A stretch of 32,000 nucleotides of DNA from the NCBI RefSeq assembly GCF_000011465.1, contig NC_005072.1:1320001-1352000 (forward strand), read 5' to 3'. Positions 13,761-30,088 of the stretch are shown here, piece by piece (within the stretch, counting starts at the first letter, position 1; every line of letters begins with the position of its first letter). The notes under the pieces were generated by a model. That model was not told the DNA's origin, did not search any database, and saw nothing but the letters and a program-made list of their open reading frames with translations. Source of the stretch: Prochlorococcus marinus subsp. pastoris str. CCMP1986 (lineage in GTDB: Bacteria > Cyanobacteriota > Cyanobacteriia > PCC-6307 > Cyanobiaceae). The translations under genes and the position numbers were made by a program.

Positions 13761-13802
13761 AAAATAAAAAGAGTCGGCCTGTATCCCTACTAGCCAACTC
13801 TT
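13761..13802 (-). terminator. hairpin-family copy T2 (terminator-like)
   Basis: Minus-strand reading AAGAGTTGGC-TAGTAGGGATACAG-GCCGACTCTT followed by TTTTTATTTT. The loop matches the other family members. Confidence 0.5.
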
Positions 13803-14313
13803 GTTAATAATATTAGTTAAAAATTATATTGAATGAGGATTTTATCTCAAAAAAAGATGTTCAAAATTATTTTATAAATAATAAAGTTCAAGAATTTGGT
13901 TTCTAAAAAAAAGAATATAAAAAAGGCCCCTTAAACATAATCAAGTATAAATTAATCTATCTTTCATTGAATTGCTGGAGGTGTTCTTTCAATATTTAAA
14001 TAGATTGGTTTATATATTAAATAATAATTAAAAAAATTTTTTCCATGTATTAAATCCTAAGAGATCTATTAAATTTTGACTATATATAATTAACGAGAAC
14101 TCAAATCACAGTTATAAGTGGATTCATGGTATATTAGGTCTATCTCAGGTAGAGATAAGATTAACTAATATTGACCAAGCTAAAGAATTTCTAGTAAGAA
14201 TACCAATTGCAAGAGTCAAGCCTTCAATTATATAAGTGTCTTTAATCTATTTTTGATTAAATACGAATATTTATGTTTCTTATCAATCCTGAATTTATAA
14301 CATTACAATTTAA

Positions 14314-14448
14314 ATGAAAAAATTAAACAAAAAGTATGCAGATTTATTGCATCAAGCATCTAAGGCAACCGGTAGAAAAGAAGCGGTAGGTTTATTGCAT
14401 AAGGCGGCAAAACTTCAAACTAAATTTGATGAGAAGTCTAAGCCTTAA
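14314..14448 (+). CDS. hypothetical basic helical micro-protein (44 aa)
   Basis: MKKLNKKYADLLHQASKATGRKEAVGLLHKAAKLQTKFDEKSKP. Confidence 0.4.
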   Translation: MKKLNKKYADLLHQASKATGRKEAVGLLHKAAKLQTKFDEKSKP

Positions 14449-14558
14449 AAGGAGCGTCGTAATTCCTAGTCAAAAATAGAGGCTTAGAAACGTTTTGGAC
14501 ATTAATGTAACAGAAATGCAGCTAAATAATCTACAACACGAGTATTTACCTCTATTTA

Positions 14559-14587
14559 TTTACAAAAATAAATATATGTGTTATATT
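14559..14587 (+). promoter_or_regulatory. sigma70-type promoter of the hli pair (-35 TTTACA, 17-nt spacer, -10 TATATT)
   Basis: TTTACA at 14559-14564 and TATATT at 14582-14587, about 25 nt before the ATG. The same architecture and the core TGTTATATTT recur upstream of the hli loci at 25674 and 30368. Confidence 0.55.
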
Positions 14588-14612
14588 TATTAATATAAAT
14601 TACTTTAAAAAA

Positions 14613-14720
14613 ATGACTCCTGAAGCAGAACGTTTTAATGGTTGGGCAGCAATGTTAGGTTTCGTAGCAGCTGTAGGTGCTTACGTAACAACAGGTCAAA
14701 TCATCCCTGGTTGGTTCTAA
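14613..14720 (+). CDS. hli: high-light-inducible protein (single-helix CAB/HLIP), 35 aa
   Basis: MTPEAERFNGWAAMLGFVAAVGAYVTTGQIIPGWF. CAB helix signature E..NG..AM.GF plus a TTGQIIPG tail. Its stop overlaps the next start (TAATG). Confidence 0.9.
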   Translation: MTPEAERFNGWAAMLGFVAAVGAYVTTGQIIPGWF

Positions 14721-14860
14721 TGAAGAACAACGAACCAAAATTAGTTGAAAAAGAAAAAATTGTAGCCGAAAAACTTAATGGTAGGTTTGCCATGATGGGA
14801 TTCGTTGCATTAGTAGGAGCTTATCTAACCACAGGTCAAATTATTCCTGGATTTATCTAA
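14720..14860 (+). CDS. hli: high-light-inducible protein, 46 aa
   Basis: MKNNEPKLVEKEKIVAEKLNGRFAMMGFVALVGAYLTTGQIIPGFI. The ATG at the TAATG junction is preferred over the ORF-track start 14642, which would overlap the upstream hli. Confidence 0.9.
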   Translation: MKNNEPKLVEKEKIVAEKLNGRFAMMGFVALVGAYLTTGQIIPGFI

Positions 14861-14884
14861 GCCTTTTCAAATAAATTTTATAAG

Positions 14885-14915
14885 CCAGATTGCCAAACTC
14901 GATCTGGTTTTTTTT
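14885..14915 (+). terminator. intrinsic terminator after the hli pair
   Basis: Stem CCAGAT / ATCTGG with an 11-nt loop, followed by a run of eight T. Confidence 0.7.
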
Positions 14916-15036
14916 ATTTTAATTAATTACTTTAACTATATTCTTTTTAAGTAATTGGAATTAAGAAAATTAGAACATTAATTATTTTTCTATTATTAAA
15001 AAAATTAGTTAGTATTGCTTAAATGATTATAAAAAA

Positions 15037-15156
15037 ATGAATGCAATTAATAAATATTTACCTTTTGGCTTAAAAGCTGAAAAGATCATGCCATCTTTTA
15101 TTATTTTTAAGCTTCTTACCTTTTCTGGTTTTATTGCTTATATGATGAATCGATAA
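15037..15156 (+). CDS. micro-ORF (39 aa), hydrophobic C-terminus
   Basis: MNAINKYLPFGLKAEKIMPSFIIFKLLTFSGFIAYMMNR. Confidence 0.3.
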   Translation: MNAINKYLPFGLKAEKIMPSFIIFKLLTFSGFIAYMMNR

Positions 15157-15157
15157 A

Positions 15158-15271
15158 ATGATTTATCCTCCGCCTCAAGTAGTTTTTGCCTTACTGATTT
15201 TATCCACTGCAGCAGTATTAATTTGGGATATTAAATATAATCCTTTCGGTGAAGATCAAGACGGGATATAA
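15158..15271 (+). CDS. single-helix micro-ORF (37 aa)
   Basis: MIYPPPQVVFALLILSTAAVLIWDIKYNPFGEDQDGI. It starts 1 nt after the previous stop. Confidence 0.3.
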   Translation: MIYPPPQVVFALLILSTAAVLIWDIKYNPFGEDQDGI

Positions 15272-15379
15272 AAACAGGTTTAAAACCCCATTAAATTTAA
15301 GTCTTTAATCAGTATAAAAACTCTATCGGAATAATAAAAATCATATTAAAGTCAATTCAAATAATTGGAGGCAAATCAA

Positions 15380-15481
15380 ATGACCAACCTCGGATTGGAG
15401 ATTGTATTCTGGCTAATTTTATTAACCTATCTTGGAGCTAGACTTACCCAAACTAAGAAAGGTTACAAACAACAGTATTAA
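15380..15481 (+). CDS. single-helix micro-ORF (33 aa)
   Basis: MTNLGLEIVFWLILLTYLGARLTQTKKGYKQQY, with a GGAGG Shine-Dalgarno 9 nt upstream. Confidence 0.45.
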   Translation: MTNLGLEIVFWLILLTYLGARLTQTKKGYKQQY

Positions 15482-15505
15482 CACTAAAAGAAGGAGGTTT
15501 TAATC

Positions 15506-15655
15506 ATGGCATTAAATGACACTTTTAAAATTCTTCCAAAAAATAAAACTTCTTTGGAGGCTGATTTAACATCATTCTTACCTAAAAAAGACTATTGGGC
15601 TGCAGAGTGCAAAGAGCATCCCTCTAAAAAAGAATGCCTTTTCTATTGCGACTAA
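15506..15655 (+). CDS. small protein with C-terminal EC..(H/Y)P.K..CL..C motif (49 aa)
   Basis: MALNDTFKILPKNKTSLEADLTSFLPKKDYWAAECKEHPSKKECLFYCD. AAGGAGG Shine-Dalgarno 8 nt upstream. A paralog lies at 26701-26847. Confidence 0.55.
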   Translation: MALNDTFKILPKNKTSLEADLTSFLPKKDYWAAECKEHPSKKECLFYCD

Positions 15656-15748
15656 AATTAACTTTTATACGTAAACTTGTAAATTTTGCAGATTGATTTT
15701 TAATAGATTTATTCTAAATTAAATTTAATTTTTATTTGAGGAAGATTT

Positions 15749-15865
15749 ATGAATACAAGAAAGAAAAATCCCAAAAGGGGGGTAGGGAAAACTGAAACCA
15801 ACACCGAATGGTTGGATAAAGTTATTAATCAGTTAATCAATAAAGATTTCAGTCAATATCTTTAA
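15749..15865 (+). CDS. basic micro-ORF (38 aa)
   Basis: MNTRKKNPKRGVGKTETNTEWLDKVINQLINKDFSQYL. Confidence 0.3.
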   Translation: MNTRKKNPKRGVGKTETNTEWLDKVINQLINKDFSQYL

Positions 15866-16191
15866 GTTGTGATTTTAATTCAAAAACTTTAACTAGCATT
15901 CTTAGATTGATTTCTAGCTTAAAATTTATTTTAAATAAAATGAAATAAAATCTTTAGATATTATCCAAGTCCCCAATAATGCCTTTTGTTTCAAAATAAG
16001 AAATATATTAAAAGGGACTAAAAAACTGAAAGATATTTATGGATAAGATTACTTTCTACAAATTTAATTTTGTTTCTTATGTAAGTTCTATTTTTTTAAT
16101 TTATGGGTTTAAATAAGGGTAAATAATAATACAAGGGAATTTTTTTTAATTTTAAAAGGTGATAGATTTATTAAGAAATTTTGGCTACAAA

Positions 16192-16326
16192 ATGAGAGTA
16201 AAACTTGAACCTGAAACAGCTTTTATAGGTAAAAAATTTGCATATATTTTTCTAGGTATAATATTTGCTCTTAATTCAATAGTCTTCATTTGGTATTTCT
16301 TTTTTTCTAATCTAACTTGGAGCTAG
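16192..16326 (+). CDS. single-helix micro-ORF (44 aa)
   Basis: MRVKLEPETAFIGKKFAYIFLGIIFALNSIVFIWYFFFSNLTWS. Confidence 0.35.
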   Translation: MRVKLEPETAFIGKKFAYIFLGIIFALNSIVFIWYFFFSNLTWS

Positions 16327-16434
16327 TGAATTATCACTTATTAATAGATCCATATAGTAGTCAGTTAAATCAAGCGCAAACCAGCTTGAGTATTTATACT
16401 CACAGTAAGTAATTTTACTCACTATAATAAAAGC

Positions 16435-16541
16435 AAGCATTTAGGAAGTGCTTAGCTGGTTAAGCTCAGTCAATCTGAATTTAACTTTATCGTCATGAGA
16501 GTTTGCTAGTAGGGATGCGAGCAAGCTCTTTTTAATTTTTT
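16435..16541 (+). ncRNA. candidate small RNA (~105 nt) ending in hairpin-family copy T1
   Basis: TATAAT box at 16423-16428. There is no ORF longer than 4 codons. Internal hairpins are AAGCA-loop-TGCTT and GCTTAG-CTGG-TTAAGC. The 3' end reads ATCGTCATGAG + AGAGTTTGCT-AGTAGGGATGCG-AGCAAGCTCT + TTTTAATTTTTT. Confidence 0.35.
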
Positions 16542-16733
16542 GCAAATAATACTCAGTTTGTAAATAAACAAATCAACAGTTTTTGATTTTTAATAAAAAA
16601 GATTAAGTTAAAGCATTGATTAGAACTTAAGAAAAAGTTGTTGAATAAGACCTTGTCAATCAGGATTAAATTTTTTTTAGAAACTTTCCTGTCAAAATAA
16701 TTTTGCTAAAAAAGGATATAGATTAAATTCAAT

Positions 16734-16835
16734 ATGTCTTTAGATTTCATTCTTATTCCTTTTTGTATAATTGCTATTTTATGGTTATTTAATCGAGAGA
16801 ACAAAATCTACCGCAATAATAAAAAAGCACGATAA
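16734..16835 (+). CDS. single-helix micro-ORF (33 aa)
   Basis: MSLDFILIPFCIIAILWLFNRENKIYRNNKKAR. Confidence 0.3.
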   Translation: MSLDFILIPFCIIAILWLFNRENKIYRNNKKAR

Positions 16836-16951
16836 AAACAAATCTAAACTCAAAAAATTTAAGCTTGATATTTAATATTGCTGTAATTATTTTGGTATTT
16901 TTTATTTAATATGTTTCCTTATTTTATATAAATTCAATTACTAAGAAAAAT

Positions 16952-17071
16952 TTAAGCATTCAATTTATTACTAATTAACTTATCCCAATAAACTTTTGAA
17001 CGACTTATTTGTTCCAATTTTTGTTTGCAATGAATACAATTGCAAGTTCTTGCTAATGTTTTGGAAGTCAT
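16952..17071 (-). CDS. micro-ORF (39 aa) with CxCxxC
   Basis: MTSKTLARTCNCIHCKQKLEQISRSKVYWDKLISNKLNA. Confidence 0.3.
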   Translation of the reverse strand: MTSKTLARTCNCIHCKQKLEQISRSKVYWDKLISNKLNA

Positions 17072-17264
17072 TACTTCATTTTTTTTTAAAAAAACAAATA
17101 TCTAAATTAATTGCAATAGCAAATATTCTTATCCTGTAAATTTATCAATAAAAAATTGAAAAGGGAAATATTTTTTTATAAAAAGAAAGAGTAAAGATGG
17201 TCTCAATTTGATTAGTATTTTATAATCTTAAAAACTATTGAAAATTTAATCAAATAAATTTCCT

Positions 17265-18467
17265 TTGCAAATTTCAACTCAATCAACTATTAAAAAATTT
17301 ATCCGCCAAGTTTGTTTACCATGGAATTCTATTCCATTAATAGATAGATGGTTAATAGCGCAAATATTACCTCCAATGTTATTTGCTATCTCTGCTTTTA
17401 CAGTTATTTCATTATCAGTGGGAGTAATGTTTGATCTAATAAGAAAAATAGTTGAATTTGGATTACCTTTATTTTTAGCTATAAAAGTTCTTTTTTTTAG
17501 CCTTCCAAGTTTTCTAGTTTTGTCGTTCCCGATGGCAGTTTTATTGTCTACGTTGTTAGCTTATGGGAAATTATCAGCAAATTCAGAATTATTAGCATTG
17601 AAATCTTTAGGAATAAAAACTTCAAGAATTATCGCTCCTGCTATTGCAGTTTCTATATTAATGACAGGCTTAACTTTTTATTTCAACGATAACTTGGTAC
17701 CTTCAAGTAATAAGTTAGCAGAATCTACTTTAAGAGCTGGTATTGGAAGTTCTTTTAGCAGTGAAGAAGGGAAAGATAATATTATGTTCTCTAGATATGG
17801 TTCAAGAATAGAATCGGCAACAAATAAGCCCACAAAGACTAATACATTCCTCACTCATATTTTCTATGCATCGTGGTTTGAAAATAACATTATGCAGGGA
17901 GTTACTGTTTTGGATTTTTCGAGACAAGATATACAGCAAATCTTAAAAGCAAAAAGTGCGGTATTTGATAAGGAAAACTCCTCCTGGATATTTTCAGATG
18001 GTAGTATTGTTTCTGTTGACCAAGGCGGTCAAACTACTAATATTCAATTTGAAAAATATAGGTATCCATTTGTAGAAGGGCCCTTAGATTTAGCCAGAGT
18101 CCCAAAAGATGCTACCGAAATGTCTCTTAAGCAAGCATTAGAGGCTGAGAGAATATACAAAGAGACAGGAAACTTAAAAGAAATAAGAAGAATTCAAGTT
18201 CGCATCCAAGAAAAATTTACTTTGCCTTTTGCATGCTTAGTATTCGGATTAATTGGAAGTAGTCTAGGATCAAAATCCAATTTAAGATCTTCCAAAAGTC
18301 AGGGATTTGGATTAAGCGTTATTCTAATATTAGTTTATTATGTGATGTCTTTTGTATTCAGTTCATTTGGAGTAAAGGGATTGTTAAGTCCAATAATTGC
18401 AACTTGGCTACCTGTTTTAATTTCTATGGGTGGTGGAATTTATTTCTTAAGAAAGGCTAGTTTATAA
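17265..18467 (+). CDS. LptF/LptG-family (YjgP/YjgQ) permease
   Basis: 400 aa. N-terminal IDRWLIAQILPPMLFAISAFTVI..., three N-terminal and three C-terminal hydrophobic spans around a large periplasmic-type loop. TTG start as in the ORF track. Confidence 0.85.
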   Translation: MQISTQSTIKKFIRQVCLPWNSIPLIDRWLIAQILPPMLFAISAFTVISLSVGVMFDLIRKIVEFGLPLFLAIKVLFFSLPSFLVLSFPMAVLLSTLLAYGKLSANSELLALKSLGIKTSRIIAPAIAVSILMTGLTFYFNDNLVPSSNKLAESTLRAGIGSSFSSEEGKDNIMFSRYGSRIESATNKPTKTNTFLTHIFYASWFENNIMQGVTVLDFSRQDIQQILKAKSAVFDKENSSWIFSDGSIVSVDQGGQTTNIQFEKYRYPFVEGPLDLARVPKDATEMSLKQALEAERIYKETGNLKEIRRIQVRIQEKFTLPFACLVFGLIGSSLGSKSNLRSSKSQGFGLSVILILVYYVMSFVFSSFGVKGLLSPIIATWLPVLISMGGGIYFLRKASL

Positions 18468-18523
18468 ATTTTGATTGATTGACAGCTAGTTTAAAATAAT
18501 AGTTATTTATCATCTAATATTTT

Positions 18524-18808
18524 GTGACTATTGAAACAACCGTTTTCACCTTTCAAATTTCAAATACATTTGAAGAGTAGGCGAAAATTTTTGATAGTCC
18601 AGAGATAGATGAATTTCATAAAAACTTAGGATTATCCCTTCTTTATAGAGGGAAAGGTTTAACAGATCCTAAAGAAGTTATTGTTATTCATCAAGCCAAA
18701 AAAGGAGTCGCTAAACATATATTTTCTGATCCCGAAACAATAAAGAATATTGAAGCTGGAGGTCATATATATAGCACTACAAAAATCACAAGTTGGTTAT
18801 CAGATTGA
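18524..18808 (+). pseudogene. paralog of ORF 27131-27412 interrupted by one in-frame TAG (18578-18580)
   Basis: The GTG-start frame reads VTIETTVFTFQISNTFEE*AKIFDSPEIDEFHKNLGLSLLYRGKGLTDPKEVIVIHQAKKGVAKHIFSDPETIKNIEAGGHIYSTTKITSWLSD. This is colinear with MSIETTVLDFKLSNTFEEYQAHMN...ASGHIYEGTIINRWIS, with TAG in place of TAT (Tyr). Confidence 0.6.
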
Positions 18809-18997
18809 TTGAATTACGAGATATATAGAAGATTACTTTCTCAGGGATGGAGGAAAATAAAACCAGTTTGATCATAAAAATTATTTACATCAACTTTTCA
18901 AAAGATTTAAAGACAGAATTTAAAAAAGCAATACATTAAATAACTCGCAGATTTGTAACTTAAATTTTAGGATTGATCTATAAATAAATTAAAAAAT

Positions 18998-19198
18998 ATG
19001 GGCGAAGCAAAAAGAAGGCAAGCATTGGGTATCCCTCCAAGAAAAAAAATATCAGATATAAATAAATCAGATAGGTATATTTCTTGGCTTCCACTTACCA
19101 AAACGAGAATTAAAAAATATCCATATATGGGAGTAGCAACAATGGCATTAGGTGCGATTATATTCTTAGTAAGTGGTGGATTTAATACTATTAGTTAG
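18998..19198 (+). CDS. small tail-anchored membrane protein, MGEAKRR-type N-terminus (66 aa)
   Basis: ORF-track ORF with a basic N-terminus and the C-terminal helix MGVATMALGAIIFLVSGGF. Confidence 0.5.
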   Translation: MGEAKRRQALGIPPRKKISDINKSDRYISWLPLTKTRIKKYPYMGVATMALGAIIFLVSGGFNTIS

Positions 19199-19253
19199 TA
19201 ATTAATAATTTCATTTCTAATTTTTTAGAGGCTTTTTATTTAAATCTTTAAAA

Positions 19254-19835
19254 TTAATTTTTATCAATTCTCATATATCCAAACCAATCAGGAATATTTT
19301 TTTCTTCTATATGATTATCATTCCGGATTAATTCTATTTCCCAATTTTTTATATTTTTTATAACCTCACAATCTTCTACATCAATAAAATCTTTAACAGC
19401 ATAAATATCATCTTTATGTTTTTTTTTGCAGTCAATTAGCCATTTCGATTTGGCCTTATTATTGGCCTCTGAAGGACTAGAGGCTACAACAAGGCCAAAT
19501 TCATGTTTTTCTTGCATAGAGCTTGGATCATATCCTCCAATATTTACAAACCATAATTTTTTTTTGGAGATTTTCTCTTTTTTTAAAATCTTATTTTTTG
19601 GTTCCCTATTCTCTTTATTTCTAAGATTTATTTTATAGCCATCAATTGAATCAATTTTTTTATAACTATCAATATGAAAGCCATTGTTAGATCCAAACCA
19701 ATCATTTCTTAATTGATCAAAAGTGTCCTCAATTTTTGAACCTATAACCCACCTGACGTCATGCAGTTCGATATTTGCTTTAGGAGATCTACCTCCAACC
19801 ACAACTAAAAAAAGAAATTTTTCATTAGGTTCCAT
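19254..19835 (-). CDS. DUF1543 domain protein (two tandem repeats)
   Basis: FLVVVGGRSPKANIELHDVRWVIGSKIEDTFDQLRNDWFG fits the DUF1543 signature (GGR...IELHDVRFV.G..IE.T...L...W). A second, degenerate copy starts at LWFVNIGGYDP. Confidence 0.7.
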   Translation of the reverse strand: MEPNEKFLFLVVVGGRSPKANIELHDVRWVIGSKIEDTFDQLRNDWFGSNNGFHIDSYKKIDSIDGYKINLRNKENREPKNKILKKEKISKKKLWFVNIGGYDPSSMQEKHEFGLVVASSPSEANNKAKSKWLIDCKKKHKDDIYAVKDFIDVEDCEVIKNIKNWEIELIRNDNHIEEKNIPDWFGYMRIDKN

Positions 19836-19930
19836 TTTTTTATCTTAAATAGAAAGTCAACTAAAATAAAGGGTTATCTGAAAGATATGATAAAAGGATT
19901 ATTTACAATACATCAATACTAATACTTGTT

Positions 19931-20563
19931 ATGGAACTAATTGGGAGATATAAAAATTCAGGATTTGAAGCAGTAGCTGATGGTGTTATTTCTTTCTTTG
20001 ATCGCCGCAAAGAATTACATACTAATGGAATTGCTTTCGGACAAAGTACATCTTTGAATTCTGATCCATATAAAGTTTCCACTGATATTAGTCTTGTATC
20101 AATAGACAGATCAGATCCAGAAGCCTTTGCAATGTCTGAAGTCATAATTAGAGGAGTTAATGCAGGACTAAAAAAATATCTTGAGGATCACCCTTTAATA
20201 AAAGAATGCTGCCCAGAACAATCTTTATTTGTTAACCCAATATTTAATTTGCAACGTTACGCACCAGGAGAGGGATTTAAGAAATGGCATTGTGATTGGA
20301 CTTTTAGTGATGAAGCTACAGAGCCTGTCAATAGAGTCTTAGCTTGGATTCTTTATTGTAATGATGTTAATTCTGGTGGGACTGAATTTCATTGGCAGAA
20401 TCATCATGAAATAGCTGAGAGGGGAAAACTTATTATCTTCCCAGCAGGTATATCTCACATTCATCGTGGAAGAGTGAATAATAAAGAGGTTAAAACTATT
20501 GCGACTGGTTGGGTTAATGCTGGCAAACTTGAAGAGTATATTTCACGCTTAGCTAATTCCTAA
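19931..20563 (+). CDS. 2OG-Fe(II) oxygenase superfamily protein
   Basis: HxD facial-triad start in KKWHCDW, distal His and Arg in ISHIHRGR, and GGTEF and LIIFPAG strands typical of the double-stranded beta-helix fold. Confidence 0.8.
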   Translation: MELIGRYKNSGFEAVADGVISFFDRRKELHTNGIAFGQSTSLNSDPYKVSTDISLVSIDRSDPEAFAMSEVIIRGVNAGLKKYLEDHPLIKECCPEQSLFVNPIFNLQRYAPGEGFKKWHCDWTFSDEATEPVNRVLAWILYCNDVNSGGTEFHWQNHHEIAERGKLIIFPAGISHIHRGRVNNKEVKTIATGWVNAGKLEEYISRLANS

Positions 20564-23490: not shown

Positions 23491-23665
23491 GTAAATAGAA
23501 TTTTTTAATATTATACGAATCTCCTAATTATTTTTTTTCTGATCAATCATTCTTTTTGTACAAATTAAACATGATATTTAACTAATTTATAAAGAGCTGT
23601 ATGTAGGACTACCGCCTACCAATAACTAATAACCTATTTATTTCTTGAACTTTTAATTAAAGTAT

Positions 23666-23791: not shown

Positions 23792-23810
23792 AATTAGATT
23801 TCCTTAAAAC

Positions 23811-23937
23811 TATGGTTGACTTCAGCTGCATTCCTACAACTGTCTCATGACAACCATATTTTAATTTTAGGCAAGCTATTCAACCTTATAAGTAGATATA
23901 CTTACCTCTTTCCGTACCTTGTCGTTCCTTAAACCGT
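23811..23937 (-). ncRNA. structured leader element, copy M (126 nt core)
   Basis: On the minus strand: 32-nt box CGGTTTAAGGAACGACAAGGTACGGAAAGAGG, a 47-nt variable segment, then the 47-nt nested hairpin ATGGTTG-TCATGAGA-CAGTTG-TAGGAATG-CAGCTG-AAGT-CAACCAT. It is colinear with copy P without indels. Confidence 0.5.
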
Positions 23938-24027
23938 ACATCATGACGTTCATGAATGAGATAAATAATCATCATCACTTGGTCTAACAAGGTCATTTTT
24001 TAGTGCAAGGAGTAACTTATTCTCTAA

Positions 24028-24420
24028 CTATTTTGTCTTAGAAAGTAATAAAAGCCAACCACAGATTAAGGCAAAAGCCATTATCGAAGAAAAAATATTA
24101 TTCCATTGAGCAGTATCTGTTAAATATCTTTCTATCCAAAAAGGGATAAATAACACAACAAAATACCAATAAATTAGAGAAAGAATTCCAAACAACAAAG
24201 CTAAAAGAATATAAAAAGGTAATATACAAAAAAATCTTTTTCTTTCAATTTTTGAATATTGTCCTATTCCTATTTTTCCCCAATAACCTCCATTTAATTG
24301 AAGAAAAAACTTTAAGAATACTCCGTAAGTTGTTATAAAAAACTTAGCGAATCCCAGCAATGGTTTAAAAATTACCTTTATTAAATGCGAGAATAATTTC
24401 ACAAGTATTTTTATTTGCAT
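24028..24420 (-). CDS. polytopic membrane protein, unknown function (130 aa)
   Basis: ORF-track ORF with three or four hydrophobic spans. Confidence 0.6.
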   Translation of the reverse strand: MQIKILVKLFSHLIKVIFKPLLGFAKFFITTYGVFLKFFLQLNGGYWGKIGIGQYSKIERKRFFCILPFYILLALLFGILSLIYWYFVVLFIPFWIERYLTDTAQWNNIFSSIMAFALICGWLLLLSKTK

Positions 24421-24512
24421 AAATTAATGATACTACCAAAAATTTTTCTTATGTGAAAATAAAAATTGAATCAAGACAATGGTTCTGGCAAAGTGTCTAA
24501 AAATTAAATTAT

Positions 24513-24542
24513 TAAAAAAAACAACTCCCAAGAAGAGAGTTG
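24513..24542 (-). terminator. intrinsic terminator (minus strand)
   Basis: Minus-strand stem CAACTC / GAGTTG with a 9-nt loop, followed by eight T. Confidence 0.55.
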
Positions 24543-24600
24543 AATTTCTAACGTCGGAAGTTAATTTATTTCTTTTTCTCTTTTTTAGAGACTTAACAAT

Positions 24601-24645
24601 ATAAAAGCTTGCTTAATATCCCTATAAGCAAGCTCTCATGACGAT
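24601..24645 (-). terminator. hairpin-family copy T3, immediately after ORF 24661-24840
   Basis: Minus-strand reading ATCGTCATGAG + AGCTTGCTTA-TAGGGATAT-TAAGCAAGCT + TTTAT. Confidence 0.5.
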
Positions 24646-24660
24646 TTAATTTTTAAATAT

Positions 24661-24840
24661 TTATGCTGGCAATCTACAATCAAGTTCTATTGTTCCCTCA
24701 TCCATAAGGCGACCAATTTTTAAAACTAGTGCCATATCTAATCTTGAGAAATCTGATTGGTGATTTGTAATCCAATCTAATTCAGATAAAGTTATTACTC
24801 CAGTAGTATTAACTTTGAGGAAGAGTAATCCTAAATTCAT
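24661..24840 (-). CDS. hypothetical protein (59 aa from the internal ATG)
   Basis: MNLGLLFLKVNTTGVITLSELDWITNHQSDFSRLDMALVLKIGRLMDEGTIELDCRLPA. The longer ORF-track start (24876) would overlap the upstream micro-ORF. Confidence 0.5.
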   Translation of the reverse strand: MNLGLLFLKVNTTGVITLSELDWITNHQSDFSRLDMALVLKIGRLMDEGTIELDCRLPA

Positions 24841-24847
24841 TATGCTA

Positions 24848-24937
24848 TTAATTAGTTGCTTTTTTTCCCTTAGCAATCATCAGTACTGGTACTAAAAGAT
24901 ATGCAAAGAATGAGATTAAGAAAATATCTAAATTCAT
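24848..24937 (-). CDS. single-helix micro-ORF (29 aa) directly after the hli operon
   Basis: MNLDIFLISFFAYLLVPVLMIAKGKKATN. It starts 1 nt after the hli stop. Confidence 0.35.
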   Translation of the reverse strand: MNLDIFLISFFAYLLVPVLMIAKGKKATN

Positions 24938-24938
24938 T

Positions 24939-25067
24939 TTAAAAAATCCCAGGTATGATCCAGCCAAAAAGACCGTAATTAACTACTAATGCAAAAAAGC
25001 CCATCATTGCCATTCTTCCATTAGTTCTTTCTGCATTTTGCCAGTAATTAGGTTTTGAGTTTTCCAT
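24939..25067 (-). CDS. hli: high-light-inducible protein, 42 aa (divergent type)
   Basis: MENSKPNYWQNAERTNGRMAMMGFFALVVNYGLFGWIIPGIF, with the E..NGR.AM.GF signature. Confidence 0.85.
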   Translation of the reverse strand: MENSKPNYWQNAERTNGRMAMMGFFALVVNYGLFGWIIPGIF

Positions 25068-25097
25068 TTTTTTGTTTTAGTTATTTGAAGTTTGTAT

Positions 25098-25358
25098 TTA
25101 AACGAAACCTGGAATGATTTGACCTGTAGTTAGATATGCACCAACTGCAGCTATAAGTCCGATCATTGCAAATCTACCGTTGAGAGTTTCTGCAACAACT
25201 TTTTCCTTCTCGATTGTTTTAGTTTTTGTGTTTGAGTTTGTCATTTGATTTTTGTTTGAGTAGATTAAATTTTCTTCTTGAAATTGTTTAGTTAGGGAAG
25301 CAACGAGTAAAGCAGTTAGAGATACAATTAAAATCAAAAAAACTGCTAGTGGACTCAT
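25098..25358 (-). CDS. hli: high-light-inducible protein with extra N-terminal hydrophobic helix (86 aa)
   Basis: MSPLAVFLILIVSLTALLVASLTKQFQEENLIYSNKNQMTNSNTKTKTIEKEKVVAETLNGRFAMIGLIAAVGAYLTTGQIIPGFV. The start is taken at the TAATG junction; the internal MTNSN start (48 aa) is the alternative. Confidence 0.8.
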   Translation of the reverse strand: MSPLAVFLILIVSLTALLVASLTKQFQEENLIYSNKNQMTNSNTKTKTIEKEKVVAETLNGRFAMIGLIAAVGAYLTTGQIIPGFV

Positions 25359-25567
25359 TAAAAAATACCTGGAATGATTTGACCTGTTGTTACGTATGCA
25401 CCTAATAATGCTACGAAGCCAATCATTGCCCAACGACCGTTAACTTTTTCTGCGTTTTGAGGATAGCCGTCATAAGAAACTGACTCATCTATGTAAGGAC
25501 GAGTTTCTGATGGAAACATGTTTTGTCTTCCGCCAGACTCAGTTGTTGTGTATGAAGAATTTGACAT
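25358..25567 (-). CDS. hli: high-light-inducible protein, 69 aa
   Basis: ...QNAEKVNGRWAMIGFVALLGAYVTTGQIIPGIF. TAATG overlaps at both ends. Confidence 0.9.
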   Translation of the reverse strand: MSNSSYTTTESGGRQNMFPSETRPYIDESVSYDGYPQNAEKVNGRWAMIGFVALLGAYVTTGQIIPGIF

Positions 25568-25674
25568 TAGAAAAAACCAGGAATTATTTGACCAGTTGTT
25601 ACGTATGCGCCAACAGCTGCTACGAAACCAAGCATTGCTGCTAAGCCGTTAAATCTTTCTGCGTCAGGTGTCAT
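25567..25674 (-). CDS. hli: high-light-inducible protein, 35 aa
   Basis: MTPDAERFNGLAAMLGFVAAVGAYVTTGQIIPGFF. Near-identical to the product of 14613-14720. Confidence 0.9.
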   Translation of the reverse strand: MTPDAERFNGLAAMLGFVAAVGAYVTTGQIIPGFF

Positions 25675-25698
25675 AATTAAAATTTGATTATGTAAACA

Positions 25699-25727
25699 AA
25701 TATAACACAACTATTAATGAATGTAAA
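25699..25727 (-). promoter_or_regulatory. promoter of the 4-gene hli operon (-35 TTTACA, 17 nt, -10 TATATT)
   Basis: On the minus strand, TTTACA at 25727-25722 and TATATT at 25704-25699, with the core GTGTTATATTTGTTTAC shared with the other hli promoters. Confidence 0.55.
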
Positions 25728-25850
25728 GATATTGGCCTCTATTAGTGCTTAAATAGTATTTTCTATACATTTTTGATACATTAATGTATAAAAGTCATTA
25801 AACTTATCTATTTATTGTTAACAAGTAAGATTTTGAAAGGTAAAAAAATA

Positions 25851-25961
25851 ATGTCAATTTCATACTACAGAGAGCAAAGAATAATGCTTTTAGGAGGACA
25901 AAATATTGTTCTGGCCAGTGAAAATCAAGAGGAAATTGAACCTATCTGGGCGAAAAAATAA
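25851..25961 (+). CDS. micro-ORF (36 aa)
   Basis: MSISYYREQRIMLLGGQNIVLASENQEEIEPIWAKK. Confidence 0.3.
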   Translation: MSISYYREQRIMLLGGQNIVLASENQEEIEPIWAKK

Positions 25962-25980
25962 ATGATAAATATTCAAAAAA

Positions 25981-26022
25981 ATGAAACGCTTACTACTTAC
26001 ACCGCTAATAGTTACGAATTGA
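25981..26022 (+). pseudogene. truncated MKRLLL signal-peptide gene start (13 codons)
   Basis: ATGAAACGCTTACTAC... encodes MKRLLLTPLIVTN then stops. The downstream -1 frame (LTAESHYGESLIPVKFTT) is colinear with the region upstream of and into ORF 27474-27623. Confidence 0.35.
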
Positions 26023-26107
26023 CAGCCGAATCCCATTACGGTGAATCGTTGATTCCAGTAAAATTTACTACTTAGGAAACTAAGAGATAATTGATTAGTC
26101 TTTTTTA

Positions 26108-26626
26108 TCAGGTTAGTGATTTGATTTCTCGTTCTATCGGATTAAACCCAACTTTCTTAATTTGATCATTTTCCCAAACCCAATAAACAGGTGGAGTTTT
26201 TCTTGCCTTTATTAAACTTATTTGGTCTAATTTTTGTGGGATAAATTCTTTAGCTGGATCAAAAAATTTATCTCTTGTGGGTTGATTTAAGACAATACTA
26301 CCTTCTTTTCCTGAAATTGATCTGTGATAAGTTCCAATAGGAATTTCTAATGCCCCCATAGATCTATTTAAATAAATTACATGATGGGGTTCATCCCATG
26401 CAGGATTTATTAGAACAAATGTTCTTTCCCCAGCAATAACTAAGTTGTGATCACTTTGATGATTGTGAACGTAATATTGTTCATCTTTAAAATCATCTGG
26501 AGGAGATATAGCCTCTTCAGAGTGAATTACCACATCGCAACCATTAGATGCCTCCAAGCCTGCATCAAAGAATGTCACTTTTGGAGTCTCTCTAAAAATT
26601 GTTGTTGGGAAGAATCTTAATTTCAT
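26108..26626 (-). CDS. cupin-like protein, unknown function (172 aa)
   Basis: YVHNHQSDHNLVIAGERTFVL and IPIGTYHRS resemble the two cupin motifs. Fold-level inference only. Confidence 0.6.
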   Translation of the reverse strand: MKLRFFPTTIFRETPKVTFFDAGLEASNGCDVVIHSEEAISPPDDFKDEQYYVHNHQSDHNLVIAGERTFVLINPAWDEPHHVIYLNRSMGALEIPIGTYHRSISGKEGSIVLNQPTRDKFFDPAKEFIPQKLDQISLIKARKTPPVYWVWENDQIKKVGFNPIEREIKSLT

Positions 26627-26700
26627 TGTTCAACTTCTCATTAATAAATTTATAAATATTTTTAGGATTTATAAGCTATAAAATAACGATTAATTTATAG

Positions 26701-26847
26701 TCAGTTGCAACAAACTAAACAATCTTCTTTTGTTGGATAATCCATACATTCTTTCTTTAAAGTTTCTTCTAAAACTTTTACTTTGTTGACATAGTCAAGA
26801 TCTCTAAACTCTTTTTTTGGAACGGTGAATTGAGTTTGTAGTTTCAT
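26701..26847 (-). CDS. small protein with C-terminal EC..YP.K..CL..C motif (48 aa), paralog of 15506-15655
   Basis: MKLQTQFTVPKKEFRDLDYVNKVKVLEETLKKECMDYPTKEDCLVCCN. GGAGG Shine-Dalgarno 6 nt upstream. Confidence 0.55.
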   Translation of the reverse strand: MKLQTQFTVPKKEFRDLDYVNKVKVLEETLKKECMDYPTKEDCLVCCN

Positions 26848-26875
26848 TTAGACCTCCTAGATCCATATCTATATT
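26847..26875 (+). promoter_or_regulatory. putative promoter of leader element P (-35 TTTAGA, 17 nt, -10 TATATT)
   Basis: TTTAGA at 26847-26852 and TATATT at 26870-26875. This would give a ~250-nt 5' leader before ATG 27131. Confidence 0.4.
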
Positions 26876-26904
26876 GTCCTACTATTGCCCTGTAATTTAT
26901 AGGG

Positions 26905-27030
26905 CGGTTTGAGGAACAATTAGGTACGGAAAGAGGACCGAATTATGAGACTGTTATTTAATTGTCATTCCTAGGATTAAAACATGGTTGTCATGAGGCA
27001 GTTGCAGGGATACAACTGAAGCCAACCATA
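26905..27030 (+). ncRNA. structured leader element, copy P (126 nt)
   Basis: Box CGGTTTGAGGAACAATTAGGTACGGAAAGAGG, a 47-nt variable segment, then the nested hairpin ATGGTTG-TCATGAGG-CAGTTG-CAGGGATA-CAACTG-AAGC-CAACCAT. The inner stem differs from copy M by G to A opposite U, so pairing is preserved. Confidence 0.5.
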
Positions 27031-27130
27031 AATTATTTGAGATAAAATCGAGAGAGAGATATCACTCATCAATCAGTAAATATATGATTGACAGTCGATC
27101 TAAAATAAGGGGCAATTAGTTTTTTTGTTT

Positions 27131-27412
27131 ATGTCAATTGAAACAACTGTTTTAGATTTCAAATTAAGCAACACTTTTGAGGAATATCAGGCTCACATGA
27201 ATGCTCCTGAACAACAAGCCATGTTTAAAGAGATGGGAGTAAAAACCTTTTATATTGGTAAATCATTAGAAGACCCTAAAAGAGCAACCGTTATGTTTCA
27301 AGGACCAGTAAATACTTGTTACGACATCTTTGTTAACCCAGAAACAAAACCAATAGTTGAAGCCTCAGGTCATATTTATGAAGGGACAATAATTAATCGC
27401 TGGATTTCTTAA
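27131..27412 (+). CDS. conserved hypothetical protein (93 aa; TTG 27125 is an alternative start)
   Basis: MSIETTVLDFKLSNTFEEYQAHMNAPEQQAMFKEMGVKTFYIGKSLEDPKRATVMFQGPVNTCYDIFVNPETKPIVEASGHIYEGTIINRWIS. A paralogous pseudogene lies at 18524-18808. Confidence 0.7.
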   Translation: MSIETTVLDFKLSNTFEEYQAHMNAPEQQAMFKEMGVKTFYIGKSLEDPKRATVMFQGPVNTCYDIFVNPETKPIVEASGHIYEGTIINRWIS

Positions 27413-27473
27413 TAATTTTGAAACGCTTACTACGTGCACCACTTTATTATTGACAGATAGCTATAAAGTATTA

Positions 27474-27623
27474 ATGGAACTTGAGAAAGGAGAAATAATT
27501 GAAATTCCAGTAGAAAATCCTACTTATTTAACAAATGCAAAGCAACCAGAAATTGGGATTATTGTTTTAAGTTTTACTGTAGTTTTATTAGTATTGGCTA
27601 TCTATAATAGAAAGCGGCATTAA
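27474..27623 (+). CDS. tail-anchored micro-protein (49 aa)
   Basis: MELEKGEIIEIPVENPTYLTNAKQPEIGIIVLSFTVVLLVLAIYNRKRH. It is preceded by a degenerate GAAACGCTTACTAC repeat. Confidence 0.4.
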   Translation: MELEKGEIIEIPVENPTYLTNAKQPEIGIIVLSFTVVLLVLAIYNRKRH

Positions 27624-27691
27624 TACCGATATACAGAAAAAAATAATCATAGTAATTTTATCTTGATCTAACGGATCTAAGCTAAAAATCC

Positions 27692-27736
27692 AGAGATTGT
27701 TTCCTTTTAAAGGCGGGAGTGCAATCTCTTTTTTTT
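27692..27736 (+). terminator. intrinsic terminator
   Basis: Stem AGAGATTG / CAATCTCT with a 22-nt loop, followed by eight T. Confidence 0.55.
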
Positions 27737-27828
27737 GTTAGCTTATTAAAAGTTAAAAGGTGAGATTACTCATAGAGATTCATAAAATTTATGCTTAAAT
27801 ATTCGAGATTCTTATTCAACTTATAAAT

Positions 27829-28188
27829 ATGGTTTACTCACAAGCAAAAGTTATTGCAGGTGGATTAGCTCATATCCCAATAGTCATATCAGTTTTTTAT
27901 TTTATAATGATATCTTTTAATATTAGAGCATTGGAATATGCTGAAGCGAATAAATCAATAAAACCAAAGTCAAATGTACTGGGATCAAAAACTGAAGCGA
28001 AGCCATTGATGGCTGTGAAAGCAGAAACGGAAGATGTAAAAGAAACCGAAGTTAAAGAAGAGAAAGCACAAGCTATAAAGGGAATCTCAAATAAGCTAGA
28101 AGAGATTGAAAAAAAAGCAGAAGATGTAAAAGAAAAAGTGAAGAAGAAACAGAAAGACAAGAAAAAAAAGAAGAAAAAAAAGATATGA
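27829..28188 (+). CDS. membrane-anchored K/E-rich protein with poly-Lys tail (119 aa)
   Basis: N-terminal helix GGLAHIPIVISVFYFIMISF, repeated EDVKE units and C-terminal KKKQKDKKKKKKKKI. ORF-track ORF. Confidence 0.55.
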   Translation: MVYSQAKVIAGGLAHIPIVISVFYFIMISFNIRALEYAEANKSIKPKSNVLGSKTEAKPLMAVKAETEDVKETEVKEEKAQAIKGISNKLEEIEKKAEDVKEKVKKKQKDKKKKKKKKI

Positions 28189-28239
28189 ATAGGGATTAAC
28201 TATGTGAAAGGATTGTCATCCAATTTGCATTCCATTCAT

Positions 28240-28371
28240 ATGGTAGTTTTTGCTCAAGCATTTATGCTTTGGGGTTCTCAGCACTATATTTTTATATTCG
28301 ATAGGAGTATAAATAATTCAAGAGTCAAAAGCACTTCATCGACTTTGTGGACACTGAGGTGCATGACTTGA
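28240..28371 (+). CDS. doubtful micro-ORF (43 aa)
   Basis: MVVFAQAFMLWGSQHYIFIFDRSINNSRVKSTSSTLWTLRCMT. Its stop abuts the following hairpin. Confidence 0.25.
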   Translation: MVVFAQAFMLWGSQHYIFIFDRSINNSRVKSTSSTLWTLRCMT

Positions 28372-28400
28372 AGAGGGCGACAAGCCCTCTTATTTATTTA
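28371..28400 (+). terminator. GC-rich hairpin, terminator-like
   Basis: AAGAGGGC-GACAA-GCCCTCTT followed by ATTTATTTA. A CTTATGACGATG motif 10 nt downstream recalls the family flank in reverse orientation. Confidence 0.45.
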
Positions 28401-28592
28401 CTTATGACGATGTATCAGAAATATCAAATCACATAAATAAATACAATAATAACTTTGTATCAACATGAACTAAATAAATACGATCTAATATTGCTATAAA
28501 TATAAGCGTGGTTGATATTGGCATCGTTCCGCCGATATTACCGCCCGGATTGGTGGAAGCTTAATATATTCTATTATTTAACTGGTAGTACA

Positions 28593-28688
28593 TTAGATTA
28601 AAACGAGGATTATTAGCAGTAACATAAGCACGTTTAATGCAACTCCTATCCGAAATAAAGTCCTATTATCTTCACCCTCATCACTCAT
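28593..28688 (-). CDS. single-helix micro-ORF (31 aa)
   Basis: MSDEGEDNRTLFRIGVALNVLMLLLIILVLI. It overlaps the upstream ORF by 8 nt. Confidence 0.35.
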   Translation of the reverse strand: MSDEGEDNRTLFRIGVALNVLMLLLIILVLI

Positions 28689-28830
28689 TTAAGCTATCCA
28701 TAAAGTGTTGTCTTCTGATCTTTTCAATCTCTTTAATCTTTTCCTGTAGCCATAAAATATTTTCTGATCTTTTTTTAAAATAAGAAATCTTAGGTTGATT
28801 GATTTCTAATGTTTCATAATCTCCACTCAT
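28681..28830 (-). CDS. micro-ORF (49 aa), helical
   Basis: MSGDYETLEINQPKISYFKKRSENILWLQEKIKEIEKIRRQHFMDSLNE. Confidence 0.4.
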   Translation of the reverse strand: MSGDYETLEINQPKISYFKKRSENILWLQEKIKEIEKIRRQHFMDSLNE

Positions 28831-29116
28831 AAATTCCCCCAAATTTATATTTCATTAAAACTCTAATTAGTGTATTTATTATTTTTACTAAGGAGAAAAT
28901 AAGAAAGAATTAATTTATGGTTAAAAAGAATCAACTGATCGCGAGAGAGGGAAATAAAAATATTTTCGAGAGGATTATAAACTTAAATTTTATTTTTCTT
29001 ATTCGTATCTTATTTAATTCTTAAAGAAGAGTTCAGTAAATCTTTTAAACTGAAATTAGATTCTATATTCGCCTCACACGAAAGATAGAAGCTTTCTCTT
29101 TTTGAAATAATTTGGT

Positions 29117-29317
29117 ATGACATATTTTGCAGAACCAAATTACATAGCATATGACCGGTGGTTTGATTCAAATATCAATCCAGTTGATTTAATTGACAAT
29201 TCAGATGAAAAAGAATTTAGTAATTTTGTTAATGAAAAATTCAATGATATTTCAAGTTTAAATATATTTATAGGTGCCTCACAACATAAACAAATAAATA
29301 TTTTTCCTTTTTTCTAA
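29117..29317 (+). CDS. hypothetical acidic small protein (66 aa)
   Basis: ORF-track ORF, no motif. Confidence 0.4.
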   Translation: MTYFAEPNYIAYDRWFDSNINPVDLIDNSDEKEFSNFVNEKFNDISSLNIFIGASQHKQINIFPFF

Positions 29318-29354
29318 TTTGCTTGCAGATTTAAAGCTTTCTTATATTTGATAG

Positions 29355-29756
29355 TTAAGCAGCTTTTTGATTTGATTCCTCTTGTTCAAAATTTGCTTTA
29401 TTTTCCTTAATCGCTGGATTAGCCCATTTTAATAATCTTATAGCTAATCTTAAATCCCCCTCTAACCAGGCTCTAATTGCTATTGCTCTTCTTGGATCAT
29501 AAAATTTTTGTTTTCTATACCAATAAAAAACATTTTCATCTGATTTGTTTCCATTACAAGTAAGACAAGCTGGAACACAATTTTCTGTTATGCTTAAGCC
29601 TCCCTTACTTTGTGGTAATAAATGATCAATAGATTCTGATGGTTTGCCGCAATATATACACCTTTTTCCTGTAAATGTATGGATAGATTTTCGCCAATAT
29701 CTTAATTTGATTTTAGGACATAAATCCTCTAAAAACACTGCATCATCAATATGCAT
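29355..29756 (-). CDS. HNH endonuclease
   Basis: CIYCGKPSESIDHLLPQSKGG...NCVPACLTCNGNK. The paired CxxC zinc knuckles and the H-N-N catalytic spacing are characteristic of HNH. Confidence 0.88.
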   Translation of the reverse strand: MHIDDAVFLEDLCPKIKLRYWRKSIHTFTGKRCIYCGKPSESIDHLLPQSKGGLSITENCVPACLTCNGNKSDENVFYWYRKQKFYDPRRAIAIRAWLEGDLRLAIRLLKWANPAIKENKANFEQEESNQKAA

Positions 29757-29909
29757 TAAGATTATTTAATTACTTCTATTTGTGCCTTATTAAATTTAAA
29801 AATAATTTAAGAAAAGTTTATCATTAACAATAAAATTTAAAGCGCTTACTAGTTGAACCGTTTTCTTATTGGCAGATGGTAAATAATTATTAGACCGAAA
29901 ACATAAAAT

Positions 29910-30032
29910 ATGGGCGAAAAAAGATGCCGCAACTTAATCACTTGTTCTAGGAAATTAAATTTAAAAAAATATGTTCATCAGTCTATGGAGATGCAAGAAA
30001 GGAATATGAGCAGTTATTGGAAAAGGATTTAA
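29910..30032 (+). CDS. doubtful micro-ORF (40 aa), degenerate relative of 18998-19198
   Basis: It shares AAAATATGGGCGAA at the start and AAAAAATAT...ATGGAG further in with 18998-19198. It lacks the C-terminal helix. Confidence 0.25.
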   Translation: MGEKRCRNLITCSRKLNLKKYVHQSMEMQERNMSSYWKRI

Positions 30033-30040
30033 AAATCTGC

Positions 30041-30088
30041 ATTAAAAAGTGCTTGCCAGTATCACTATTGGCAAACACTCATGACGAT
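30041..30088 (-). terminator. hairpin-family copy T4
   Basis: Minus-strand reading ATCGTCATGA + GTGTTTGCCA-ATAGTGATAC-TGGCAAGCAC + TTTTTAAT. Confidence 0.5.

Follow-up and report, generated by a model that had tools for sequence, protein, structure and literature searches.

The question raised by this locus is whether the hairpins with a TAGGGAT-like loop that recur between its genes are ordinary transcription terminators or copies of one structure that has been selected for something more. The locus is a stretch of 32,000 nt of Prochlorococcus MED4 (positions 1,320,001–1,352,000, hereafter the window), corresponding to genomic island 5, with a G+C content of 28% and rich in tiny open reading frames (ORFs) and in hli genes, which encode high-light-inducible proteins. 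In this work, four transcripts of the window, two small RNAs (sRNAs) and two hli operons, were found to end in one shared type of hairpin. The four copies (T1 to T4) represent a module of about 50 nt. Its loop and 5′ box show much more conservation than termination requires, and the selection on them is separable from that on the stem. We hypothesize, with somewhat better than even confidence, that this is an RNA-level 3′-end module specific to high-light-adapted (HL) Prochlorococcus, which combines an intrinsic terminator with a shared recognition signal for high-light stress transcripts. The hairpin and the U-run would be the intrinsic terminator and the 3′ end of a small set of such transcripts, namely the sRNA Yfr20, a second sRNA of ~58 nt ended by T2, and operons in which hli genes are followed by a small ORF and then by the module. 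Loop and box would serve as the recognition signal for one shared putative trans-acting factor, most likely an RNA-binding protein, which might couple the processing, decay or localisation of the transcripts that bear the module.

The module consists of an unpaired AUCGUCAU box, a stem of 11–14 bp with the base GAG(A/U)G/C(U/A)CUU, a loop of 9–12 nt with the near-invariant core UAGGGAU, and a U-run, which is 4–6 nt long in T1–T4. The four copies quoted in an earlier sequence-only reading of the window are present as written, with positions and strands correct. The same reading counted at least six copies, which has to be amended to four members and two related non-members, the inner hairpins of the leaders M and P. 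Hairpins with an AG[GT][GA]AT loop were searched for exhaustively, and those found were four long ones (stems of 11–14 bp, T1–T4) and two short nested ones (M and P). The 11-mer ATCGTCATGAG, which is the box plus GAG, occurs exactly three times in the window; with up to two mismatches it has 11 matches against 3.8 expected, and none of 100 shuffles reaches 11. A covariance search, as had been proposed for this family, was made with a model from 28 distinct copies (R1), run on the window with filters off. It identified exactly four members at 50–73 bits (E ≤ 1.8e-9; Table 1) and a next best score of 13.6 bits, and orthologs score 35–79 bits. The predicted folding energies of T1–T4 are between –17.4 and –18.7 kcal/mol, and the box is left single-stranded. 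Every copy lies sense to an upstream gene or sRNA, with the U-run on its 3′ side. A generic terminator scan with a loop limit of 8 nt passes over all four copies because of their 9–12-nt loops, and the other terminators in the region have loops of 3–8 nt and lack the motif. The 5′ flank had been described as conserved. This is true of the unpaired box in T1, T3 and T4, but the GAG next to it belongs to the stem base (GAGAG/CUCUU), and T2 has no box.

The evidence for selection comes from sequences outside the window. Since the scan of genome collections described below forced box and loop, an independent protein-selected sample was drawn, consisting of 80 metagenomic loci picked solely by tblastn to PMED4_15921 (ORF59), the small ORF in front of T3, and not by motif. 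Among the 64 distinct downstream sequences, the exact loop was present in 42, the exact box-plus-GAG 11-mer in 31, both in 29, and neither in 9. In the model alignment the consensus is matched at 80–99% in the columns of the box and 90–99% in those of the loop, the most conserved of all, compared with 40–60% in the post-stop spacer and the upper stem. Pairing was assessed in an alignment of 43 sequences (protein-selected copies, T2 orthologs, MIT 9515 and the window copies). In it 95.5% of the cells pair and 9 of the 12 pairs are compensatory, changed on both sides, while none of 500 shuffles reaches the observed pairing and slid registers pair in 39–55% of cells. G·U pairs are found in 32 of the 43 sequences at the basal pair and in 11–14 at three others. 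As a G·U pair is an A·C mismatch on the complementary strand, their frequency, together with the strictly sense orientation, indicates a constraint on the RNA. Moreover, three unrelated stem types (GCUUGCUU, GUUUGUCA and, in MIT 9515, GUCAGCA) follow the same ORF at the orthologous position, with box and loop unchanged. These results support the view, already taken in the sequence-only reading, that the module with its co-varying stems is a selected structure and not a set of generic terminators.

It is unlikely, in our opinion, that the copies are ordinary intrinsic terminators with no extra function, alike only through the duplication of hli cassettes, occasional gene conversion and termination constraint. 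Their homology is clear and extends to stem positions such as UUG...CAA, and hli cassettes are indeed duplicated in MED4 (the T3 interval and a twin at 772701–772783). However, gene conversion would homogenise whole tracts, and what is seen is a mosaic in which the box is kept, the stem varies with compensation and the loop is kept. This mosaic holds across the three stem types and across unrelated upstream sequences (the sRNA body, ORF59 and the 36-aa ORF, ORF36), so it does not stem from gene-conversion tracts or duplication alone. In some lineages (L223–225, L258 and L261) loop and box have been lost and hairpin and T-run kept, as would suit plain terminators; on the other hand, a 9–12-nt loop is unfavourable for a terminator, neighbouring terminators having 3–8 nt, and the sub-motif UCAUGAG + stem + YAGGRAU is found in a non-terminator context as well, in M and P.

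Returning to the combination of terminator and recognition signal, we infer termination activity, the existence of a putative reader and its action. The module resembles intrinsic terminators in that a stable G+C-containing hairpin with a direct U-run stands on the sense strand immediately downstream of Yfr20, ORF59 and ORF36. The short loop (3–8 nt) of such terminators is absent from it; it differs from them by a near-invariant loop of 9–12 nt and a conserved unpaired 5′ box, both selected independently of the stem. That the module forms 3′ ends is further suggested by the mapped 89-nt Yfr20, which T1 ends, by an array signal that runs into T3, and by an expressed 58-nt interval that ends at the U-run of T2. 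A protein is the best guess for the reader for several reasons. A loop of this size does not suit efficient termination, and the terminators nearby, which lack the motif, have loops of 3–8 nt; no intramolecular partner of box or loop was found; the complements of box and loop are not enriched; UCAUGAG-stem-YAGGRAU recurs in the non-terminator leaders M and P, where there is no U-run; and a similar loop, UUUAGGAAG, caps the first hairpin of Yfr20. Thus, a protein-recognised terminator module, as the sequence-only reading had proposed, is still the best description, the reader being putative. A pseudoknot between box and loop was rejected, since by eye at most three contiguous pairs (AUC:GAU) can be formed and folding leaves both unpaired.

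Several observations weigh against this reading. The motif is missing from about 14% of orthologous sites (about 1 in 7), some of which have a plain hairpin, so it must be dispensable in some lineages. T2 and its orthologs have no box, which means that box and loop are not necessarily a single functional unit. T4 of MED4 has UAGUGAU instead of UAGGGAU, and the U-runs of some copies are weak (UUUUAU in T3, UUUUGUUAUU in MIT 9515). Nor is the module universal among hli units: of the four in the window, two are closed by ordinary terminators (14882–14910 on the plus strand and 21037–21011 on the minus strand). Finally, the half-life of Yfr20 is 2.0 min, and an sRNA this short-lived suggests that the module is not a strong stabiliser.

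A bolder version of the hypothesis, which we put forward as doubtful, is that the module is a 3′-terminal "regulon tag". In this view, Yfr20, the T2 sRNA and the mRNAs of hli operons would all be recognised, through the UAGGGAU loop and the AUCGUCAU box, by a dedicated RNA-binding protein restricted to the HL clades, which would co-ordinate the high-light stress response in its burst-and-decay kinetics or its thylakoid targeting. The sub-motif of M and P might be read too, and the two sRNAs might be decoys that compete with the mRNAs for the factor. If true, this would be a bacterial counterpart of the logic of the histone stem-loop and SLBP. The likeness to the 3′ stem-loop of histone mRNAs, a functional analogy, lies in a short hairpin at the 3′ end whose loop and flank are conserved and which marks a family of co-regulated genes for one protein; the histone element is eukaryotic, not homologous and without a U-run, and its reader SLBP is known, whereas that of the module is only proposed. 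A purine-rich GGA/GGGA motif in a hairpin loop, which the module has and which is repeated in Yfr20, is also presented by the decoy and target hairpins that CsrA/RsmA binds, and RRM domains of the hnRNP A1 type prefer UAGGG(A/U). The UAGUGAU of T4 of MED4 departs from this pattern, and CsrA is not known from cyanobacteria. That cyanobacterial RRM-type Rbp proteins read the module loop is pure conjecture.

Prochlorococcus is the ocean's most abundant phototroph and has a minimal set of protein regulators. The module offers a concrete handle on the post-transcriptional control of the large, multi-copy hli family, as an RNA of ~50 nt with two short motifs and a defined set of transcripts, and it may open the way to a post-transcriptional layer in the response to high light. 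Even if loop and box have no function, it is a clean example of a lineage-specific terminator family.

Table 1. Features of the window that are referred to in the text (positions from the first nucleotide of the window; R1, covariance model of the module; predicted folding energy).
Feature	Position	Strand	R1 (bits)	Folding (kcal/mol)	Description
T1 module	16483..16536	+	72.7	–17.4	box ATCGTCAT 16489–16496, unpaired; stem 16497–16507/16520–16530; loop AGTAGGGATGCG 16508–16519; T-run
Yfr20 sRNA	16435..16523	+			Rfam RF02367; 106.9 bits, E 8e-19, gathering score 44
T2 module	13763..13814	–	50.1	–18.7	stem 13802–13792/13779–13769; loop AGTAGGGATACA; T-run; no AUCGUCAU box
Promoter-like element of T2	13823..13850	–			TTGAGA, 16 nt, TATAAT; 11/12 match; directly upstream of T2
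T3 module	24597..24651	–	63.4	–18.7 (z –4.46)	box 24645–24638; stem up to 14 bp; loop TAGGGATAT; tail TTTTAT
PMED4_15921 (ORF59)	24661..24876	–			71-aa reading; 59 aa from the annotated start 24840
Four hli genes	24939..25710	–			upstream of PMED4_15921 and T3; translations with ...NGR.AM.GF...GQIIPG.F
T4 module	30041..30094	–	71.6	–17.6	box 30088–30081; stem 30080–30069/30058–30047; loop ATAGTGATAC (G-to-T variant); T-run
hli gene and 36-aa ORF (ORF36)	30102..30368	–			hli gene 30213–30368, then ORF36 30102–30212; operon ended by T4
Leader M	23805..23950	–			structured 5′ leader (~140 nt) of a 41-aa ORF; nested hairpin 23805–23856
Leader P	26903..27030	+			paralog of M upstream of a DUF3764 gene (27131–27412); nested hairpin 26985–27030; inner loop CAGGGAUA

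The sequence-only reading had placed T1 behind a candidate sRNA and knew of no named family for the hairpins. The sRNA is real, but it was already known. Yfr20 of MED4 was located at 1336435..1336523 of BX548174.1 in genomic island 5, as an abundant sRNA of 89 nt with its own promoter and a transcription start at 16435 of the window, and among the non-coding RNAs of that study it alone was upregulated under high light (Steglich et al., 2008; PMC2518516). In our sigma-70-type promoter scan the predicted –10 element of Yfr20 ends at 16428, 7 nt before the mapped start. T1 is the third, 3′ hairpin of Yfr20, and the Rfam consensus already encodes UCGUCAUGAGAG...GUaGGgaU. When the window was compared with Rfam, as had been suggested, Yfr20 was the sole family above threshold; T2–T4 as well as M and P were assigned to no family even at E ≤ 10. 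With the Yfr20 model itself, T3 reaches 26 bits (E 0.1–1), through the box and the third-hairpin positions alone and below the gathering score of 44, and T2 and T4 give no match at E ≤ 5. Thus, a named family covers T1, and the T2 interval carries a published label (see below). The module differs from Yfr20 in that it also occurs without the Yfr20 body, after hli operons (T3, T4 and more than 100 orthologs) and in the T2 sRNA. For annotation this means that the third hairpin of the Rfam family is not specific to Yfr20; the most conserved part of this sRNA is a module common to hli operons and a second small RNA. To our knowledge, no function has been proposed for Yfr20 since 2008. The parts are already known singly (Yfr20 in Rfam, a "yfr27" interval, and RNAz candidates that overlap T3 and T4), and no text describing the shared module was found in the searchable literature, which is incomplete. 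As a separate observation, the loop of the first hairpin of Yfr20 (16435–16453, plus strand), UUUAGGAAG, shows strong conservation in the Rfam consensus and is similar to UAGGGAU, so Yfr20 shows two similar purine-rich loops. A published grouping of Yfr20 with four other MED4 intervals, Yfr18 and its antisense among them (Lott et al., 2020), is heterogeneous and was set aside as unconfirmed.

T2 lies 2.7 kb from T1 on the opposite strand. It had been described as following nothing obvious, which needs correction, since it ends a conserved small transcription unit and is the 3′ part of a small transcript of ~58 nt. An expressed interval of 58 nt at MED4 1333763–1333821 on the minus strand (RNAz P 0.977) was labelled "yfr27" (Table S3 of Lott et al., 2020; PMC7368042); it consists of T2 and a short leader and ends at the U-run of T2. 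A second interval, at 28946–28997 of the window on the minus strand and 15 kb away, was labelled "3′ region of yfr27" and carries no module; because the two conflict, the label is ambiguous for T2. The promoter-like element directly upstream of T2 came from the same scan that recovers the true promoter of Yfr20. A block of at least 130 nt around T2 is conserved in eight strains, with an invariant AATCCTCATTT. Furthermore, R1 detects T2 orthologs beside Yfr20 in seven other genomes, in which the loop AGUAGGGAUACA is invariant and the stems co-vary. The block upstream of T2 (13815–13880, minus strand) also contains an invariant AAUCCUCAUUU with an anti-Shine-Dalgarno-like CCUC, located between the promoter-like hexamers, which might be part of the transcript or a site bound by a regulator.

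Two of the four copies form the principal structured region of an sRNA, whether bona fide or candidate, and box and loop might be base-pairing seeds. Yfr20, the T2 sRNA and processed fragments of hli 3′ untranslated regions (UTRs) would then be sibling regulators of common mRNAs, or of each other via the self-complementary UCAUGA. The box is predicted to be single-stranded, the loop is exposed and UCAUGA is palindromic, all of which would suit a seed. We nevertheless regard this as distinctly improbable, since 1.12 Mb of Prochlorococcus sequence, after removal of the modules' own antisense, showed no excess of complements to the box or the loop (an island-biased sample and thus weak evidence). 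For ATGACGAT, 21 residual occurrences compare with a same-composition median of 20, and there is no conserved start-codon context; moreover, T2 lacks the box. A mini-ORF from the AUG of the box to the UAG of the loop (e.g. AUG AGA GUU UGC UAG), acting through a tiny peptide or a translational effect, is hardly credible. The two codons are in frame in T1, T3, T4, most T4-type and long T3-type copies and M, but this spacing follows from the fixed length of the stem. No Shine-Dalgarno sequence lies upstream, T2 orthologs lack the AUG, and frame-breaking variants persist, both 2 nt shorter (L091, L094, L102, L148, L208 and others) and 1 nt longer. Judged by eye, three further identities were discarded: the hammerhead core (CUGAUGA...GAAA), because the stem is not followed by GAAA; the CRESS/nanovirus nonanucleotide TAGTATTAC, as TAGGGAT alone is conserved and the trailing AC is not; and integron attC, as the core GTTRRRY is absent.

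T3 and T4 follow protein genes, as the sequence-only reading had noted. T3, after PMED4_15921, is the 3′ end of the operon of the hli cluster. PMED4_15921 belongs to no Pfam or NCBIfam family, and the module follows its orthologs in most genomes. A microarray signal classified as "3′UTR + orf" was reported at complement(1344631..1344840) (Table S2 of Steglich et al., 2008; PMC2518516), and its end at genome position 1344631 reaches inside T3. RNAz candidates overlap T3 and T4 on the opposite strand, and the T3 interval was grouped with MED4 772701–772783, which has the same length of 82 nt and a near-identical RNAz z-score (Table S4 of Lott et al., 2020; PMC7368042). This implies a twin of the T3 module at the second hli cluster of MED4, outside the window, matching the MIT 9515 locus (L590), so that MED4 probably has at least five copies of the module. 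T4 ends the operon of an hli gene and ORF36, an operon with a weak Chloroa_b-bind match, and at another locus (L140) a homolog of ORF36 is followed by a module with a different stem.

Three minor observations were made in the neighbourhood of T3 and T4, all on the minus strand. At 28371–28411, the hairpin AAGAGGGC-TTGTC-GCCCTCTT is preceded, at a distance of 10 nt, by a box-like ATCGTCATAAG. This hairpin is the antisense of the mapped terminator in the 3′ UTR of PMM1402, with no family loop and no match to R1; it may be a decayed or bidirectional relative of the module. At 26678–26696, AAATTAATCGTTATTTTAT stands right after the stop codon of PMED4_15981 and corresponds to box and spacer without a hairpin (13.6 bits with R1); it may be the remnant of a deleted module. 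At 29355–29756, there is a stand-alone ORF of 133 aa for an HNH endonuclease (Pfam HNH, 4e-9), which resembles IscB and Cas9 in their HNH regions at the level of the domain only.

The module is restricted to the host, as opposed to phages, and to the HL clades. A genome collection with one genome per species was scanned with box, loop and T-run all required, which gave at least 120 matches. Among the 120 matches listed, 117 were in Prochlorococcus and 3 were evident chance matches; most copies were located after orthologs of PMED4_15921, about 14 were 3′ ends of Yfr20, and others followed the 36-aa ORF. The number of Prochlorococcus assemblies with a module is well over 100, and among the matches listed an assembly with more than one strict match held no more than two (1–2 per assembly). 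By comparing all loci examined, an hli gene on the same strand was found at most 900 nt upstream of 127 of the 156 box-bearing modules, and most of the others belong to Yfr20. The complete genome of MIT 9515 has the order four hli genes, ORF59, module, with the third stem type and as the sole copy in 20 kb. In agreement with the restriction to HL clades, the intervals of Yfr20, T3, T4 and P are present in HLI and HLII and absent from low-light (LL) clades (Table S4 of Lott et al., 2020; PMC7368042).

Cyanophages, where the sequence-only reading had proposed to look for further copies, have none in what was searched. Model R1 found no module in 234.5 kb of viral sequence, made up of 80 hli loci and the one weak viral match of the ORF59 protein (81 loci in all), and the best weak score among them was an ordinary terminator. 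A blastn search with T3 against 50,697 phage genomes gave nothing relevant. Cyanophage hli cassettes thus lack the module, although their hli genes are closely related. A phage origin was rejected after a strict box-plus-loop scan of IMG/VR, in which all 68 matches were chance ones in coding sequences of unrelated phages of ~50% G+C.

This distribution also bears on whether the module is a DNA-level element, that is, REP- or MITE-like mobile DNA or a recombination site at the boundaries of island cassettes. The sequence-only reading had called it REP-like, and it is an extragenic palindrome in hypervariable islands. Like REP/BIME elements, it is an imperfect palindrome often found just after genes, with a short conserved motif beside the stem. 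Stem types also change their neighbours: the T4 type follows ORF36 in MED4 and ORF59 in HLII genomes, and the T2 type follows ORF36 in L140 and ORF59 in MIT 9515. However, REP/BIME elements, which are associated with RAYT transposases, come in tens to hundreds of copies in both orientations, often in inverted pairs, and the module is single, always sense and present in few copies per genome (four in the 32 kb of the window and one in 20 kb of MIT 9515). Its U-run is on one side only, G·U pairs are abundant, and the sequences read have no terminal inverted repeats or target duplications; nor was a RAYT or transposase found among the 10 window ORFs scanned. In addition, the downstream synteny is conserved past the module at many loci, with the same convergent terminator ~15 nt beyond, and the module is absent from phage hli cassettes and IMG/VR. 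A DNA-level element is therefore very unlikely, and the preferred reading of an RNA-level 3′-end module is retained. The convergent terminator deserves a description of its own. It was found at L080:6034–6084 (plus strand) and at about 50 other HLII loci, as GAGAGATTGTTT-TTAGCTAAG-AAACAATCTC plus a T-run, ~15 nt beyond a T4-type module. It has the base GAGAG/CTCTT in common with the module, but not the loop, and scores about 30 bits with R1.

The inner hairpins of leaders M and P, which the sequence-only reading had included in the family, fall outside it. Neither gave a match with R1 at E ≤ 10 with filters off, and they have a stem of 6–7 bp inside an outer stem and no U-run. With the module they share only the sub-motif UCAUGAG + stem + YAGGRAU. 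The nested hairpin of M reads AUGGUUG-UCAUGAGA-[CAGUUG UAGGAAUG CAGCUG]-AAGU-CAACCAU. These leaders (~130–140 nt) share one layout, in which a 5′ hairpin formed around GGUUURAGGAAC is followed by GGAAAGAGG, and a variable insert separates the latter from the nested hairpin AUGGUUG..CAACCAT. Two further leaders of this type were found among the loci examined, at L190:1379–1553 (plus strand) and L139:243–417 (minus strand); in the latter, one of the four known to us, the inner AGGRAT loop is replaced and UCAUGAG is kept. Two 14-mer scans of viral contigs for such leaders gave chance matches only, among the matches listed. A relation to the glutamine riboswitch clan (glnA/Downstream-peptide) was rejected, as the likeness in GGAAC and ACGGAA.GAGG is by eye alone and a sensitive Rfam scan of 3.4 kb with M and P gave no match at E ≤ 10. 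Both nested hairpins were listed as unannotated candidates with RNAz P ≥ 0.99 (Table S3 of Lott et al., 2020; PMC7368042). M and P thus form a separate and apparently undescribed family of leaders, and they could be an undescribed cis-regulatory RNA.

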